From an uncultured Oscillospiraceae bacterium (GTDB lineage Bacteria; Bacillota; Clostridia; Oscillospirales; Ruminococcaceae), in the NCBI GenBank assembly GCA_905197685.1, contig CAJJZS010000001.1, forward strand, positions 210,973-274,972: 64,000 nucleotides of DNA, read 5' to 3'. Shown here piece after piece: positions 3,703 through 50,476 of the stretch (its first letter is position 1; every line of letters begins with the position of its first letter). The position numbers were made by a program, and so were the translations under genes. The notes under the pieces were generated by a model, which was given only the letters and a program-made list of their open reading frames with translations, had not been told where the DNA came from and did not search any database.

Positions 3703-5667
3703 ATGGCAGAAAATATGGAAAAACTGCAATCTCAGCAGAACACCGAGCCCACTGCGGAAGAATTATCCGAAGTGCTGCGTATCCGCCGCGAAAAGTTTGC
3801 CGCATTAAAGGAAGCGGGCAAAAATCCGTTTGAGCAGACACGCTATGACCGCACCGTTTATGCGCAGCAGATTGCAGAACGATTTGAAGAGCTGGAAAAC
3901 AAAGAAGTATCCATCGCAGGACGAATGATGAGCAAGCGCGCGATGGGAAAAGCGTCTTTCTTTGATGTTGCCGACGCTTCCGGCAGAATTCAGGTTTACA
4001 TCAAACGCGACATTGTCGGAGAAGAAACCTATGACCAGTTTAAAAAATGGGACATCGGCGATATTGTCGGCGTAAAGGGCGAAGTATTCCGCACCAAACA
4101 CGGCGAAATCTCCATTCGCGCAACCGAAGCGATTTTGCTGTCAAAATCCCTGCTTCCTCTGCCGGAAAAATTCCACGGTTTAACCAATACCGATTTGAGA
4201 TACCGCCAGAGATATGTTGACCTGATTATGAATCCGGAGGTTCGCGACGTATTTGTAAAGCGTTCCCTGATTATCCGTGAGCTGAGAAACTTCCTTGATT
4301 CCAAAGGTTATCTGGAAGTAGAAACCCCTGTTTTGCACAATATTGCAGGCGGCGCTGCGGCTCGTCCGTTCATCACCCATCACAATACATTGAACATTGA
4401 TATGTATCTGCGTATTGCGCTGGAGCTGCACTTAAAACGACTGATTGTCGGCGGATTTGATAAGGTATACGAAATCGGCAGAGTATTCCGCAACGAGGGT
4501 ATGGACACCAAGCACAATCCGGAATTTACCATGCTCGAATTCTATCAGGCATATTCTAACTATGAAGATGTGATGAACCTTACCGAAGAAATGTTGCGCT
4601 ATGTTACCGAAAAAGTTTTGGGCACAACAAAGGTGGTTTACGGCGGCGAAGAAATCGACCTGGGCAAACCGTTTGCGCGCATCACAATGGTAGAAGCGGT
4701 TAAAAAATATGCAGGCGTAGATTTTGAACAGATTGAAACCTTGGAGCAGGCAAGAGCTGTTGCAAAAGAACATCATATTCAGTACGAAGAAAGACACCTG
4801 AAAGGCGATATTCTCAACCTGTTCTTTGATGAATTTGTAGAGGACAAGCTGATTCAGCCAACCTTCCTGATCGGTCATCCGGTTGAAATTTCTCCGCTTT
4901 CCAAGAGAATGGCAGACAAACCGGATTATACCGAACGCTTTGAGCTGTTTATCACCGGCAGAGAGTTCGCAAACGCTTACTCCGAGCTGAATGACCCGAT
5001 TGACCAGAGAGAACGCTTTGAACATCAGATGGAGCTGAAAGCGCAGGGCGACGAAGAAGCGACCGATATGGATACCGACTTCCTGAATGCTCTGGAATAC
5101 GGCTTACCGCCTACAGGCGGCTTTGGCATGGGTGTAGACCGTCTGGTTATGCTGCTGACAAATCAGCCGTCTATTCGTGACGTTCTGCTCTTCCCGACCA
5201 TGAAACCTCTGGGTGGCAGCGAAACTGTGAAAAAAGCAGAGGCTGCTGTCTGTGAAGCTCCGAAAACAGAAGAAAAACCGGTTGAAAAAATTGATTTTTC
5301 TAAGGTAAAAATCGAACCAATCTTTAAGGAAATGGTTGATTTTGAAACCTTTACAAAATCCGATTTCCGCGCGGTAAAGATTTTGGCTTGTGAAGCTGTT
5401 CCGAAATCCAAAAAGCTGCTGAAATTTACTATGGATGACGGAGAACGCAAAGATCGCGTGATTTTAAGCGGTATTCATGAGTATTACGAACCGGAAGAAC
5501 TGGTTGGCAAAACCTGTATCGCAATCGTAAATCTGCCGCCGAGAAAGATGATGGGCATTGATTCCGAAGGTATGCTGATTTCTGCCGTACATGAAGAAGA
5601 CGGTCACGAAGGCTTAAACCTTTTGATGGTTGATGACAGAATTCCGGCAGGAGCAAAACTGTACTAA
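3703..5667 (+). CDS. lysS: Lysine--tRNA ligase (class II) fused to a C-terminal EMAP/Trbp111-type tRNA-binding domain
   Basis: An OB anticodon-binding domain is followed by the class II core, with motif 2 [20 protein letters not shown] and motif 3 [12 protein letters not shown]. The C-terminal 130 aa carry [37 protein letters not shown], which is typical of the MetRS/CsaA-type tRNA-binding fold. Confidence 0.9.
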
Positions 5668-5701
5668 AATTCGGAAATGATTTTCAATTAAAAACAGATA
5701 A

Positions 5702-5743
5702 GGGCGTTGTTCCGACAAATTTTCGGGACAGCGTCCTTTTTTA
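5702..5743 (+). terminator. Rho-independent terminator of lysS
   Basis: The stem GGGCGTTGTTCCGACAAA/TTTTCGGGACAGCGTCC includes G-U pairs and is followed by TTTTTT. Confidence 0.6.
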
Positions 5744-5940
5744 TTGCTAAATTGATTTCTAAAAAACACGCAGCAGGGAAACCCGAAAACCTGTATCGTT
5801 TGTATTGACACAGAAAAGGAATTTATTTTATGATAAGAAAAAAGATTGGCAAATGTACTTTGGAAAGAAAAAGAAATAATTTAAAATCAAACCTTGCCGT
5901 AAAATCAGCCGATGTCGGTAAAAATCCCGCTTAACTCCTG

Positions 5941-6374
5941 CCGAAAATCCGAAAAAATAAAAATTTTTCGCAAATGTGTGATTGTTGTATAAACTCATGC
6001 AACTTTTCGGGCAAAACAGGGTATAGGTGAAAAGAAGCTTTCAAAAACTCCTTACGGAAAGCGGACTGAAAAGAATCTGTCAGAATTAAAATTTACCCCG
6101 TTTTCTCTCCGAAATTCCCGAAAAAAATAAAAATTTTTTGCAGATGTGTGATTGTTGTATAAACTCATGCAACTTTTGGGGCAAAACGGGGTATAGGTGA
6201 AAAGAAGCTTTCAAAAACTTCTTACGGAAAGCGGACTGAAAAGAATCTGTCAGAATTAAAATTTACCCCGTTTTCTCTCCGAAATCTCCGAAAAAATAAA
6301 AATTTTTTTGCAAATGTGTGGTTGTTGCATAAACCCGTGCAACTTTTGGGGCAAAACGGGGTATAGGTGAAAGG
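5941..6374. repeat. Tandem direct repeat with a 170-bp unit in 2.5 copies
   Basis: The units are 5941-6110, 6111-6280 and 6281-6374 (truncated) and are more than 90% identical. Each contains an A/T tract plus TG-TATAAA, an 18-codon ATG ORF of the form MCDCCINSCNF[S/W]GKTGYR, and complementary GCAAAACGGGG / CCCCGTTTTC segments. Confidence 0.85.
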
Positions 6375-6492
6375 GGATAATTTTTAAGTTTCAACGATAG
6401 TCTAAGATAAAAGATTGTGCAGGAAAATTTCCCCTTTTTATTGATTTACTAAAATTTACCTTTTGATAAAGAAATACTGCCAAAGGGAAGAT

Positions 6493-6521
6493 TGACTTTT
6501 CAGCGAATATGCAATATAATA
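6493..6521 (+). promoter_or_regulatory. Sigma-A type promoter for secDF
   Basis: TTGACT lies at 6493-6498, followed by a 17-nt spacer and TATAAT at 6516-6521. Confidence 0.5.
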
Positions 6522-6606
6522 TTCGGTATGAATGTCGTCAAACGGCAAAATTACTTTGGGAGAAAACACGGTTTTTCTTTCAAAACAGGAATTGGAGGAT
6601 TGCAGA

Positions 6607-8012
6607 TGAAAAGAGTTGGTAAGCCGGTCTTTTTCGTGGTTGTCGCGATACTGGCGCTCTTCACTTATGCAGCATTTTTTGGTGTCAGCTCAATGTACGG
6701 CGATGTGGAACGTGTGTACATCAAAGGCGCGGAAGATATCCGTTGGGGAATTGATATCCGCGGCGGTGTAGACGTTACTTTCAGTCCTCCGGACGGAGTG
6801 GACGCAACAGACGAAGAACTGGCAGCGGCAGAGTCGGTTATTAAAACAAGACTGCTCAGCCAGAACATCACAGACAGCGAAGTATACACCGATGCAAATA
6901 CGGACAGAATCATTGTTCGTTTTCCGTGGAAATCGGGCGAGCAGGACTTTAATCCGGAAGATGCGATTGAAGAACTCGGAAAAACAGCTCAGCTTGCTTT
7001 CTATAAGGATTTGCCGTTAGACCCGACCACAGGACTGCTCAGTCCGGCTGCGGGCGAACCTGTTTTAACGGGAGCCGATGTGGAAAAGGCAGAATACGGA
7101 ATGTATCAGGACCAGGAAACCGGCATGGCAGAGCCGATCGTTACCCTGACCTTGAAGGAAGAAGCAAGGGAAAAGTGGGAAAAAGCAACCACCGAGCAGC
7201 TCGGAAAACAGATTTCTATCTTTATGGATGATGAACCGATTTCCGCTCCGGTTGTAAATTCCACAATCACCGACGGAAAATGTGTCATTACCGGAAACTT
7301 TACTCCGGAAAGCGCAGTAAAACTGGCAAACCAAATCAACGGCGGCGCGCTTCCGTTTGAACTGGTTACAAAGAACTACAACGCAATCTCTCCGACACTG
7401 GGTATGGGAGCAAAGGACGCGATGGTAAAAGCCGGCGCAGCAGCCTTTTTGATTATCGCTCTCTTTATGATTTTCTATTATCGTCTGCCGGGATTTGTTG
7501 CGACCATCGCTCTGATGGGTCAGCTGGCAGGTACGATTGCGGCAATCACCGGTTTCTTTAAGGTGTTCCCGTCCTTTACTCTGACTGTTCCGGGTATTGC
7601 GGGTATCATCTTGGGATTGGGCTTCGGCGTGGATGCAAACATCATTTCCGCAGAGCGTATTCGTGAGGAAATTCGTACCGGCAAGGGAATCGACGCTTCC
7701 ATTCAGTCCGGATTTAAAAACGCTTTCTCCGCAATTTTTGACAGTAACATCACCGTTGTATTTATTGCGGTTATCTTGATGGGCGTATTCGGACCGAGCG
7801 ACAGCATTTTTGCAATTCCGTTTAATTTCCTGTTCTCCTGGTTGGGATTGGGAACAGCAACCGCAGGCTCGATTTATTCCTTCGGTTACACCTTGTTAGT
7901 CAGCATTATTTTGAACTTTGTTATGGGTGTGATGGCGTCTCGTCTGATGCTGCGCTCTCTTGCAGGATTTAAACCGTTTAGAAAAGCATGGCTCTACGGA
8001 GGTGAAAAATAA
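6607..8012 (+). CDS. secD: Protein translocase subunit SecD
   Basis: The protein has an N-terminal TM segment, a large periplasmic domain and a C-terminal 6-TM bundle. The start MKRVGKPVFFVV is preceded by GGAGGA. It overlaps secF by 1 nt (TAATG). Confidence 0.9.
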
Positions 8013-8935
8013 TGAAGTTGGATATTATCGGAAAAAGAAAATTATTCTTCACAATCTCCATTGTTGCGATGGTTTGTGTTCTGTTGGTTACTGTTTTTAT
8101 CGGTCCGAAACTGGATATTCAGTTTAAAGGCGGCTCGATTGCTACCTATTCTTACACAGGAGAGCTTTCTCCCGATGATTTTGATAAAACGGTAGAATCT
8201 TTCCTGGGACAGGCAGTCACCGTTCAGCAGCAGGAAAACAGCGTCACCGGTCAGATGAGCATGGTAGTCAGCCTGACCTCCGACCAGAACCTGACAACCG
8301 AAAAACAGTCCGCTTTGTTGGAAGAACTGCAAAAGACCTATGCAGATAATGAAGTAGAAGCCTCCGATGTCAACAACGTTGACCCTGTGATGGGTAAAGA
8401 GTTTTTGAAAAAATGTCTGGTAGCGGTTATTTTTGCTTCTGTTATTATGGTTGTTTACATCGGTCTGCGTTTCCGCAAGATTGGCGGCGCTTCCGCAGGT
8501 ATCGTAGCGGTTATTGCGCTGATTCATGATGTTTTGATTGCGTACGGTATTTTTGTGCTGTTGGGCTTTACCATCAATGACAACTTTATTGCGGTTGTAT
8601 TGACTATTTTGGGTTATTCCATCAACGATACCATTGTAATCTACGACCGTATTCGTGAAAACAAACATTACTACGGCAATAAAATGCAGCTGGGCGAGCT
8701 GGTAAACATGAGTATCAACCAGTGCCTGAGAAGAACCGTAACCACCTCTTTAACCACAGTTATGGCGCTGTTGTGTATCTGTGTGGTTGCTGTTTTGATG
8801 AATGTTAATTCGATTCTCAGCTTTGCCGTACCAATGATGGTCGGCGTTATCTCCGGCTTGTATTCTTCTGTATTCCTTTCCGGTTCGATGTGGACCCTGT
8901 GGCAGGAAAAGAAAGCAGCCAAAGCAAAAGCATAA
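8012..8935 (+). CDS. secF: Protein translocase subunit SecF
   Basis: The SecF membrane domain with IHDVLIAYGIFVLLG lies immediately downstream of secD. Confidence 0.9.
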   Translation: MKLDIIGKRKLFFTISIVAMVCVLLVTVFIGPKLDIQFKGGSIATYSYTGELSPDDFDKTVESFLGQAVTVQQQENSVTGQMSMVVSLTSDQNLTTEKQSALLEELQKTYADNEVEASDVNNVDPVMGKEFLKKCLVAVIFASVIMVVYIGLRFRKIGGASAGIVAVIALIHDVLIAYGIFVLLGFTINDNFIAVVLTILGYSINDTIVIYDRIRENKHYYGNKMQLGELVNMSINQCLRRTVTTSLTTVMALLCICVVAVLMNVNSILSFAVPMMVGVISGLYSSVFLSGSMWTLWQEKKAAKAKA

Positions 8936-9021: not shown

Positions 9022-9549
9022 ATGGCGGCAGTCAAAAAAATGTTAGGTCGGGCAGATGCCGATTATATCGTTGCGTTGATGCGTTTGATGGAAACGCAAA
9101 GTAAGAAAACGATTTCTTTGTGGGCAACTTGTTATGCAAAGGAAGTGATGTTACCGATTTATCAAAAGAAAGGCTTGGAAATAAAAGAAATAAAGGCAGC
9201 CTTTGACATGGCAGAGGGGTATTTTAAAAAGGAAAAATCCCTTGCAGAGATGAAATCGGTTTCTAAACAGGTAATAGCGATAGCAAGACAGCAAGATTTG
9301 ACACCGGCAGCGCAGGCGGCAGCTCGGGCAATCAGCGCAGCGTTCAGTTCTTTTTCCACACCGACAAGCGCTTTGGGAATGGTATTTTATGCGGCAGCAT
9401 CCGTCGCTTATGACAGAGAAGGAACAGAGCAAACGCCCCAACGCTACGAAGAGATTGCAGAACAGGAAGCAAAAAATCTTTATCAAAGATTGCAGGAAAT
9501 TGCAGTTGAAGGGGAGAAAAAACCGGCAAAATTAAATTGGAATTGTTAA
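9022..9549 (+). CDS. Hypothetical all-alpha protein of 175 aa
   Basis: The start codon has a good RBS, AAAAAGGAGG. I recognise no catalytic motif. Confidence 0.55.
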   Translation: MAAVKKMLGRADADYIVALMRLMETQSKKTISLWATCYAKEVMLPIYQKKGLEIKEIKAAFDMAEGYFKKEKSLAEMKSVSKQVIAIARQQDLTPAAQAAARAISAAFSSFSTPTSALGMVFYAAASVAYDREGTEQTPQRYEEIAEQEAKNLYQRLQEIAVEGEKKPAKLNWNC

Positions 9550-23195: not shown

Positions 23196-23271
23196 GGGGG
23201 CGTAGCGCAGCTGGGAGCGCGTACGGTTCGCATCCGTAAGGTCGGGAGTTCGATCCTCCTCGTCTCCACCA
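23196..23271 (+). tRNA. tRNA-Ala, anticodon CGC, with encoded CCA
   Basis: I folded the cloverleaf by hand. The acceptor GGGGGCG/CGTCTCC carries the G3:U70 identity pair. The D arm is GCGC-AGCTGGGA-GCGC. The anticodon loop TTCGCAT gives CGC. The T arm is GGGAG-TTCGATC-CTCCT. Confidence 0.85.
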
Positions 23272-23277
23272 TTCAAT

Positions 23278-23354
23278 GAGGGCATAGCTCAGTTGGTTAG
23301 AGTACTTGCTTGACATGCAAGGGGTCGGTGGTTCAAGTCCACTTGTCCTCACCA
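23278..23354 (+). tRNA. tRNA-Val, anticodon GAC, with encoded CCA
   Basis: The acceptor is GAGGGCA/TGTCCTC. The anticodon stem-loop CTTGC-TTGACAT-GCAAG gives GAC. The T loop is TTCAAGT. It lies 6 nt after tRNA-Ala. Confidence 0.85.
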
Positions 23355-50214: not shown

Positions 50215-50450
50215 ACCTTTCTTAAAGACAGCCGTCCGCAAAAAGAAAGGACAGCAAAAAAGAAAGGTCGGATAGCGCTTCACCGGTTCCGCAGCGGAAA
50301 GCACGGTGACAGTTGCGCCCTTGTTCAGGACACACCCAGGGCAGTATTCGCCGAAATACCCCCTTCGGCACCGTTCCCTTTGGCAGAGGATTCAAACAGC
50401 TTTGGCAGCCTTGTCCTGAGCTACTGATGAAAGGTGCGCCTCTATCGTTT
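50215..50450 (-). promoter_or_regulatory. Lysine riboswitch (L box) in the asd-dapA-dapB leader
   Basis: On the minus strand the leader reads TAGAGGCGC...CTCTGCC...GTGCCGAAGGGGG...CAACTGTCACCGTGC, which matches conserved L-box core elements. It is followed by the hairpin GCTGTCC-loop-GGACGGC. Confidence 0.65.
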
Positions 50451-50476
50451 CATATATTATGATTAGTGTTTGCCTA

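Follow-up and report, generated by a model that had tools for sequence, protein, structure and literature searches.

What is a 170-bp tandem repeat doing between lysS and secD in an uncultured Oscillospiraceae bacterium? The question is raised by a stretch of DNA of 64,000 nt (the window, to which all coordinates refer unless a contig is named) whose host is, by SecD homology, a Negativibacillus species (Oscillospiraceae). A preliminary description of the repeat had offered a reiterated promoter with a Cys-sensing leader peptide, a Cys-rich peptide or an array of precursors of ribosomally synthesized and post-translationally modified peptides (RiPPs), and a regulatory RNA as candidates. We consider it fairly probable that the repeat is instead a strain-variable array of three orphan copies of a non-coding, phage-type late promoter module of ~115-170 nt. 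Sequence comparison gives good support to the module's native copy being a predicted promoter/operator region that heads a terS-terL-portal-capsid-sheath operon of a phage-like element.

The lysS-secD array

Tandem Repeats Finder (TRF) delimits the array at 5941-6372 with a period of 170, 2.5 head-to-tail copies, 93% matches and a score of 758, which bears out the repeat as first described. Units 1 and 2 are 96-97% identical, and the third copy (92 nt) is 89% identical to unit 2, so that an earlier figure of >90% identity for all units holds for the first pair only. Past its high-identity part, the third copy continues in a tail (6375-~6445) that still aligns loosely to the second half of the unit (AAAAGAtTgTGCAG..AAAATTTCCCCtTTTT); the array is therefore effectively three units long, with the last one diverged. 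Relatedly, the ~70 nt before unit 1 (5872-5940) are similar to the inter-copy segment in its 3' part, indicating that the first element of the family begins ahead of the TRF boundary. The 170-nt unit is found at no other locus in the window besides this spacer. The parts of the array are as follows.

5941-6110, + strand: repeat unit 1 (TRF, alignment)
6111-6280, + strand: repeat unit 2 (TRF, alignment)
6281-6445, + strand: repeat unit 3, of high identity only over 6281-6372, with the diverged tail after it (alignment)
5950-5971, + strand: A/T tract (CGAAAAAATAAAAATTTTTCGC) of unit 1, with equivalents at 6119-6141 and 6289-6311
5984-6003, + strand: imperfect palindrome GTTGYAT-N6-RTGCAAC of unit 1, also at 6154-6173 and 6324-6343; its right arm is the -35-like TGCAAC
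5998-6032, + strand: promoter-like core of unit 1 (TGCAAC 5998-6003, 16-nt spacer, GGTATA 6020-6025, then GGTGAAA as predicted start region)
6168-6202, + strand: promoter-like core of unit 2 (TGCAAC 6168-6173, GGTATA 6190-6195)
6338-6372, + strand: promoter-like core of unit 3 (TGCAAC 6338-6343, GGTATA 6360-6365)
6371-6443, + strand: terminator-like closing stem after the unit-3 core (AAGGGGAUAAUUUUU...GAAAAUUUCCCCUU, -16.5 kcal/mol, then UUUAUUG; z = -1.8, a modest value)

The A/T tract reported for every unit is indeed present in all of them. The two-block core has three matches in the window against 0.03 expected, and the same array is present in independent assemblies; together these confirm that it is not a chance pattern. 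Units 1 and 2 have no terminator-like structure downstream. The closing stem and U-run of unit 3 recur, in the same design and right after the predicted start, in an independent copy of the family (L105).

Three assemblies carry the spacer with 2.5 copies: the window, L001 and L003, the latter two being independent and identical in LysS. A fourth, L002 (GCA_026169275.1), also with identical LysS, has 1.5 copies only, so that the copy number, whose variation the preliminary description had raised as a question, is polymorphic across strains. The L002 spacer also contains an IS200/IS605-family insertion (L002 6047-6740, ~window 5747) just 3' of the lysS terminator, with its Y1 transposase gene at L002 6182-6646. 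A tie between the repeat and this element was rejected, the ends of the element being without similarity to the unit.

Conservation in syntenic spacers was judged on 80 SecD loci. In the four closest Negativibacillus species (SecD 85-92% identical; L006-L009) the spacers before secD are only ~200 bp long and show no trace of the repeat unit; there is no lysS upstream of secD in these species, the genes found there being unrelated. All that is conserved is the ~130 bp nearest secD (window ~6470-6605), comprising the secD promoter and the leader with a hairpin at 6533-6547. The lysS-secD adjacency is unique to the window's species, and the repeat sits in lineage-specific DNA at a break in synteny.

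Copies of the module upstream of terS

Metagenomes scanned for a pattern specifying the 20 most conserved bases yielded 23 gut-metagenome contigs (L086-L108), none of which carries lysS or secD. One of them, L090, fits the 20-nt core pattern but is otherwise unlike the family, and was set aside as a chance match. What the dispersed copies share with the array is the first ~115 nt of the unit and, in many contigs, the ~46-nt core only. On alignment, the blocks of the family follow the order AAAATTTTT, palindrome GTTGCAY-N6-RTGCAAC, TTTT, GGGGTATAGGTGAAAGG; closer relatives have an extra block, GTGTGATTGTTGC, between AAAATTTTT and the palindrome. The AAAATTTTT core is conserved family-wide, ~34 nt upstream of the -35-like block.

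In 13 scan contigs, and likewise in L096/L097, a terS-like gene begins shortly after the core, with terL and portal genes behind it; the distance from core to packaging genes (terS-like, terL or portal) is 19-85 nt. The terS-like protein (~150 aa) has no Pfam or PHROG match and no recognisable DNA-binding domain; terL (Terminase_6N, phrog_2) and portal (phrog_30703) follow its gene. L114/L129 and L116-L119 encode an identical small protein, and the cluster extends to capsid (Phage_capsid_4) and sheath (Phage_sheath_1C) genes, which make it a contractile-tail phage-like cluster. Native copies are found upstream of terS in L086, the L088 group, L097, L112, L114 and L120-L128, whereas the copies in the window stand upstream of secD.

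In several species with a terS-like protein only ~50% identical, the cluster adjoins a host G5/3D-domain gene (L129 10001-20477, L116, L120-L127). No activator gene (ltr/rinA/arpU) lies directly upstream of the element at native sites, where G5/3D or IseA-like membrane proteins are encoded instead. Among the genes in view (~10 kb of cluster) there are no regulatory, integrase, repressor or replication genes, and the cluster may be a domesticated element like PBSX or a gene transfer agent (GTA). The tetranucleotide composition of L114, L116, L087 and L096 correlates with that of the window at 0.94, against reference values of 0.93-0.97 for same-species contigs and 0.82-0.85 for sister Negativibacillus species; on this compositional similarity, the window's species is itself the most likely host of the phage-like element that carries this promoter family. 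A variant cluster in L097/L115/L130 (4118-8000) has only terS-terL-portal, followed by a PriA C-terminal fragment and def, fmt, rsmB, rlmN and PP2C/PASTA-kinase genes. In composition it departs from the remaining class-2 contigs (r 0.83-0.86 vs 0.94), and the variant is either a deletion or a chimeric assembly.

Copies also lie upstream of a RicinB-lectin gene (L087, L095, L114), a GlnA-III-like open reading frame (ORF; L104) and a VTC-domain ORF (L106). The metagenomes hold at least 5-6 genomic contexts, the window one locus. The unit thus largely proves to be a scattered intergenic repeat family, the outcome that the preliminary description had named as speaking against its own proposals. 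Tandem pairs recur as well: copies are 162 nt apart before terS in L114 (P2-P3), L116, L118 and L119, 163 nt apart in L104 in another context, and 172 nt apart in L103. Between loci, homology in the inter-copy segment is limited to the last ~40 nt (AGAAT..TTTTCTCC..CCGAAAAA) and does not extend to the middle.

Searches for the source of the spacer in PLSDB and INPHARED (blastn, 'distant' mode) gave no plasmid or phage match, and the non-repeat parts of the spacer have no homologues at other family loci. No terminal inverted repeats or target-site duplications are evident; by eye, there is a weak likeness of the left end (TTCTCCTTCA) to the right end (TGAAAGGAGG).

Some contigs bear on how these arrays are assembled. 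L104 6941-7200 and L114 5627-5946 hold the same two-copy array, inter-copy segment included, with different genes on both sides, which suggests either mobility of whole arrays or an assembly artefact. A scaffold gap (N run) falls within the promoter array of L117/L132 at ~250-350, and the short contigs L098, L103 and L106 have individual element copies in common with different flanks. These observations suggest that the repeats break or chimerise metagenome assemblies.

A bipartite core with a rigid spacer

The first set of copies was chosen with part of the core, which brings in a ASCERTAINMENT bias; to remove it, terS loci were then fetched by protein homology. Independent of the motif are L112 (IMG/VR, portal 45% identical), L120-L125, L126 and L127, all found by portal or terS protein homology; a second scan fixing only the two outer blocks led to L128. 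L112 and L120-L128 have nCAAC, an exact 16-nt spacer of differing sequence, and [GC]GTATR-GGTGA, as these core sequences illustrate.

L112: AAAAGCGGCGTTTGGG
L120: TTTTTACTCAAAAACG
L127: TTTTTGCCTCAAAACG
L128: TTTTTTGCGTTTTGGA
Window: TTTTGGGGCAAAACGG

In L112 and L120-L127 the element stands 40-50 nt before the terS ATG. In L128 just 19 nt, with GGGAGG in between, separate the -10-like block from the ATG, so that any transcript serving that gene must begin within GGTGAAG; the conserved GGTGAAAGGAGG reads as a predicted start site plus a Shine-Dalgarno sequence.

Among 31 distinct copies the spacer is exactly 16 nt in every one, and its sequence differs in L112, L120, L127, L128 and L104a. The -35-like block is nCAAC (TGCAAC, GACAAC, GGCAAC) or TGCAAT in all 31, usually with TTTT after it, CAAC/CAAT at this position having been a selection criterion of the script that collected the copies. 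The -10-like block is CGTATA in L112 only and GGTATA or GGTATG otherwise. Two conserved blocks at a rigid distance over a free spacer amount to promoter-like behaviour. L129 has three motif copies in 20 kb, all at operon heads, and none in ~10 kb of structural genes; no copy occurs in the ~700 kb that the SecD loci of 80 related Oscillospiraceae make up, and IMG/VR gives a single match. A strong hairpin with a T-run lies just upstream of the element in the L128 and L102/L126 types.

The arms of the palindrome are nearly invariant in sequence across the family. Judged by this conservation, the palindrome has the character of a DNA site recognised by its sequence, with the -35-like block as right arm, and not that of an RNA hairpin conserved for structure only; longer perfect palindromes in some species could double as terminators.

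The preliminary description was right in seeing a promoter-like element in each unit, but placed it at TATAAA; the motif supported here, TGCAAC-N16-GGTATA, lies ~20 nt downstream. TG-TATAAA itself is present in units 1 and 2 and not in unit 3, which reads CATAAA, as do both L002 copies. TATAAA was rejected as a sigma-70 -10 element: it stands 14-15 nt from any -35-like hexamer, is not called by the sigma-70 scan and varies within the family; it coincides with the palindrome's loop, a variable stretch that reads CATAAA, CATATT or CACGTT elsewhere. Also rejected were SigB (GTTTAA-N12-14-GGGTAT), sporulation sigmas and sigma-54, whose consensuses misfit the blocks of the unbiased copies; L112, for one, is without GGGTAT.

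Coding potential and RNA structure

The frames on which the peptide proposals were built lie across the core.

5974-6030, + strand: mini-ORF 1 (MCDCCINSCNFSGKTGYR), also at 6144-6200 and 6314-6370; judged non-coding

All three 18-codon frames exist, with precisely the peptides claimed, but the coding constraint once seen in their synonymous changes dissolves on a full count, which gives three synonymous vs three non-synonymous changes among the window copies. No Shine-Dalgarno sequence precedes the mini-ORF, the upstream AAATTTTTTGCAA-ATG (AAATTTTTTGCA[AG]) not being purine-rich. The ATG is confined to the lysS-secD locus; in every family member elsewhere it is replaced by CTG, GTG, CCG, TCG, TTG, TCC or TGG, and the frame has in-frame stops in L095 and L086. 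The Cys codons are a conserved TG-rich DNA motif (TGTGTGATTGTTGCA...TGCAAC) read in one frame. Moreover, the frame spans the -35- and -10-like blocks, and so would not be on a transcript starting from those blocks.

The suggestion of a regulatory or structured RNA fares no better. Rfam gives nothing relevant at the gathering threshold in the window, no credible match at E<=10 in 5600-6700, and none in eight family loci. The complementary GCAAAACGGGG / CCCCGTTTTC segments exist, at ~75-85 nt rather than ~100 nt from each other and with a mismatch in unit 1; their long-range pairing is a feature of the lysS-secD locus only and is not found in other family members. Fold z-scores of the units are weak, ranging from -0.35 to -2.3 (-0.65 and -2.3 for the GCAAAACGGGG/CCCCGTTTTC pairing), and the sequence downstream of the predicted start has no conservation between loci. 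As an RNA hairpin the palindrome was rejected: its covariation score was reached by 60 of 500 shuffles and so does not rise above controls, and its seven core pairs are almost invariant in sequence.

The spacer and its neighbours

A spacer of 939 bp, bounded by lysS (3703-5667) and secD (6606-8012), holds the array; the neighbouring genes are greA, lysS, secD, secF and an Imm5-like gene, and secD and secF (8012-8935) are separate genes. Three further features flank the array.

5700-5738, + strand: intrinsic terminator of lysS
5805-5834, + strand: sigma-70-like promoter TTGACA-18-TATGAT, directed into the array (sigma-70 scan) and kept in L002
6492-6520, + strand: secD promoter of sigma-70 type, TTGACT-17-TATAAT (sigma-70 scan)

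The last of these begins 118 nt past the repeat, in agreement with the separate secD promoter that had been placed ~120 nt after it. Gene callers give a 34-aa ORF at 5830-5934, whose ATG falls inside the -10 (TATGAT) of the 5805-5834 promoter; relative to L002 it has two non-synonymous changes and another stop codon, and is probably non-coding. LysS (654 aa) is a class II LysRS core fused to a C-terminal tRNA_bind domain (PF01588, Trbp111/EMAP-like). A gene for an Imm5-like putative immunity protein (9022-9549) lies directly 3' of secF, and a lysine riboswitch (90.6 bits) and two adjacent tRNA genes are found elsewhere in the window (50265-50452 on the - strand, 23196-23351 on the + strand).

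Discussion

The homology to terS-upstream regions, the bipartite conservation, the dispersal, the tandem duplication elsewhere, the copy-number polymorphism and the absence of coding or RNA-structure signals are established, and they underlie our preference for an array of orphan late promoter modules. The class of factor involved, the activity of the copies and any role between lysS and secD we infer from these. The module would consist of the A/T tract, the palindrome with the -35-like TGCAAC(TTTT), the 16-nt spacer, the -10-like GGTATA and GGTGAAAGG, the last containing the predicted start and a relic Shine-Dalgarno sequence. Its likely mechanism is recognition by an alternative sigma factor of ECF-like (extracytoplasmic function) type, by an activator of late genes that belongs to the phage-like element, or by both. 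When this cognate factor is active, all three modules would fire in the direction of secD: transcription begun in unit 1 or 2 would pass on into the following unit, and that begun in unit 3 would meet the terminator-like stem ~70 nt downstream, giving a short, dead-end non-coding RNA. The array would not drive secDF, which has its own conserved sigma-70 promoter. At lysS-secD the array is strain-variable and probably dispensable, and its consequence is most probably modest.

Several observations weigh against this interpretation. Promoter function, start site and direction are read from motif anatomy. The invariance of the 20-nt core in the first collection is by construction, the bias-free copies being L104a, L112 and L120-L128 only. 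Most copies have GGTATR and not the canonical ECF CGT, and no ECF sigma or Ltr/RinA/ArpU-type gene was found beside any copy or in the window by a rough tblastn with SigW- and RpoE-like queries. Copies lying between convergent genes (L103, L098, L105) have no downstream gene to drive. The dispersed copies are 85-95% identical over ~115 nt, which exceeds what the promoters of a regulon need and looks like recent repeat copying. Finally, contexts on some short metagenome contigs may be assembly chimeras, and L117 has an N gap inside the array.

Some of these points lead to an alternative that is possible, if unlikely as a complete account: that the unit is a selfish or neutral dispersed intergenic repeat—resembling REP (repetitive extragenic palindrome), BOX or MITE (miniature inverted-repeat transposable element) sequences, or a recombination scar—which happens to come from the terS upstream region or to have been captured by it. 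The array would then have no regulatory role between lysS and secD and would be resized by slippage or unequal recombination. The number of genomic contexts, with samples OHSP01, OHMP01 and OHKJ01 each having two or three different loci, agrees with this, as do the extended identity, the copies between convergent genes, the polymorphic copy number, the insertion sequence in the same spacer, the lineage-specific DNA at the synteny break, and the two-copy array common to L104 and L114, whose flanks differ. However, far outside this lineage the core keeps one fixed functional position immediately before terS, in species with terS identities of only ~45-55%, and a spacer that varies in sequence while keeping its length at terS points to selection on a bipartite site, not just to recent copying; moreover, the lack of evident terminal inverted repeats or target-site duplications is matched by that of an associated transposase. 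For the orphan copies, a repeat of this kind is compatible with the late promoter module that we favour, since promoter modules can spread as repeats. A more ambitious version of the latter, which we rate as speculative and rather improbable, is that gut Oscillospiraceae have a domesticated PBSX- or GTA-like particle system whose late promoter module has been copied, singly or as 160-170-nt tandem arrays, to intergenic sites of the host (between lysS and secD, and before glnA-III-like, VTC and lectin genes), so that host loci would fire together with particle production or the sites would act as decoys or packaging-initiation sites. If true, it would mean a promoter-carrying repeat family wiring host genes to a domesticated virus.

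The remaining accounts are less probable still. We doubt strongly that the units encode small non-coding RNAs or form a repetitive structured leader, transcribed from the unit promoters or from the promoter at 5805-5834. That sigma-70-like promoter does point into the array, unit 3 and L105 have a 5'/3' closing stem with a U-run, the palindrome changes are compatible with G-U wobble on the + strand, and the L086 and L088 types have longer perfect palindromes with compensatory differences; set against this are the absence of an Rfam family, the unconserved downstream sequence, the weak z-scores, the restriction of the GCAAAACGGGG/CCCCGTTTTC pairing to one locus, and arms that are conserved in sequence rather than in pairing. 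It is very improbable that the units are non-promoter DNA sites of the phage-like element, that is, pac-like sites for the small terminase or decoys that titrate a late activator. Such a role would suit an element beside terS, a frequent location of pac or cos sites and of repeats bound by activators, and copies that are scattered in host DNA and tandemly reiterated, the more so given the GTA-like packaging of host DNA that is reported to be prominent in gut Oscillospiraceae and Ruminococcaceae (PMC12946183); but a fixed 16-nt spacing of blocks, followed in L128 by a Shine-Dalgarno sequence and ATG, is typical of promoters, and the terS-like protein lacks a recognisable DNA-binding domain. Least probable of all, and effectively refuted, is that the units are three gene copies for an 18-aa Cys-rich peptide, as leader or RiPP-like precursor. 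At this locus (window and L002) each of the five copies has an open frame with an ATG, and two substitutions are synonymous, but besides the sequence features of the frame described above there is no modifying-enzyme, transporter, maturation/export or Cys-related regulated gene nearby.

These results remove a tempting false lead, the Cys-rich micropeptide or RiPP array, and replace it with a motif found where the packaging operon of a contractile-tail phage-like element begins, in Negativibacillus and in gut Clostridia related to it. The motif could be used to look for the regulon and the regulator of the element. Recent work describes GTA-like packaging of host DNA as prominent in gut Oscillospiraceae and Ruminococcaceae, and the clusters responsible and their control are mostly unknown (PMC12946183). 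Given that packaging, the wider family is of more interest than the lysS-secD locus, and the shared promoter signature, together with the orphan copies in host DNA, provides a handle for transcriptome and induction studies.

Comparison with known systems

The closest parallels are the terS promoters of Gram-positive temperate phages, which are insulated by terminators and have a DNA repeat region bound by activators of the Ltr, RinA, ArpU or Alt type (PMC3753634, PMC3152322). Their mapped starts lie 28-118 bp before terS, and some Ltr activators resemble sigma-70 region 4 (PMC3753634, PMC3152322). The family described here likewise has a site at the operon head directly before terS, an upstream terminator (L128, L102) and repeated or palindromic upstream DNA; its 19-85 nt to the terS ATG are comparable with the mapped distances, and an Ltr protein like sigma-70 region 4 would fit a -35 block that is not of the sigma-A kind. 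It differs in that host genes (G5/3D, IseA-like) rather than an activator gene adjoin the promoter, in a motif that is ECF-like, and in the extra copies in host intergenic DNA, with tandem arrays of 162-172 nt; it is also known from sequence alone.

ECF promoters of group 4 offer a second comparison. The B. subtilis SigW promoter reads TGAAACTTT / CGTATA (DBTBS motif, bioRxiv 10.1101/2021.05.28.446236) and the S. coelicolor SigE promoter nnnAAC-N17-CGTCTT (PMC6767563). Like these, the present motif has an 'AAC' -35 block with a T-tract, a rigid 16-nt spacer and a -10 block of CGTATA (L112) or GGTATA/G, and L112 reads TGCAAC-N16-CGTATA exactly. Unlike these, most copies have G for C at the first -10 position, and an invariant half-site GTTGCA and an A/T tract are present that are not standard in ECF promoters; a rough search of the window and the family loci found no sigma/anti-sigma pair.

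PBSX of B. subtilis has a sigma-like late-gene factor, Xpf. With PBSX and GTAs our cluster shares the order of a small, domain-less TerS, TerL, portal and capsid, its embedding in host genes and its fixed position by the G5/3D gene. GTAs, including FpGTA of Faecalibacterium (PMC12946183), have several dispersed operons needing a shared regulator. The sheath gene indicates a contractile tail here, whereas FpGTA is podovirus-like (PMC12946183). For this comparison the cluster is known from its genes alone, over the ~10 kb seen.

The dispersed copies, for their part, recall the BOX elements of pneumococci and the Correia elements of Neisseria, which are short non-coding intergenic repeats with strain-variable tandem modules that can carry promoter or terminator activity. 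The element studied here is also short, non-coding, multi-copy and intergenic, and also varies between strains in its number of modules. It has no sequence relation to those elements, however, no terminal inverted repeats or target duplications are evident in it, and it has a native functional site, upstream of terS. The family motif, GTTGCA-N7-9-nCAAC-N16-GGTATR-GGTGA, is previously undescribed, although its type is a familiar one, a late-promoter region of a phage that has become dispersed as a repeat between genes.

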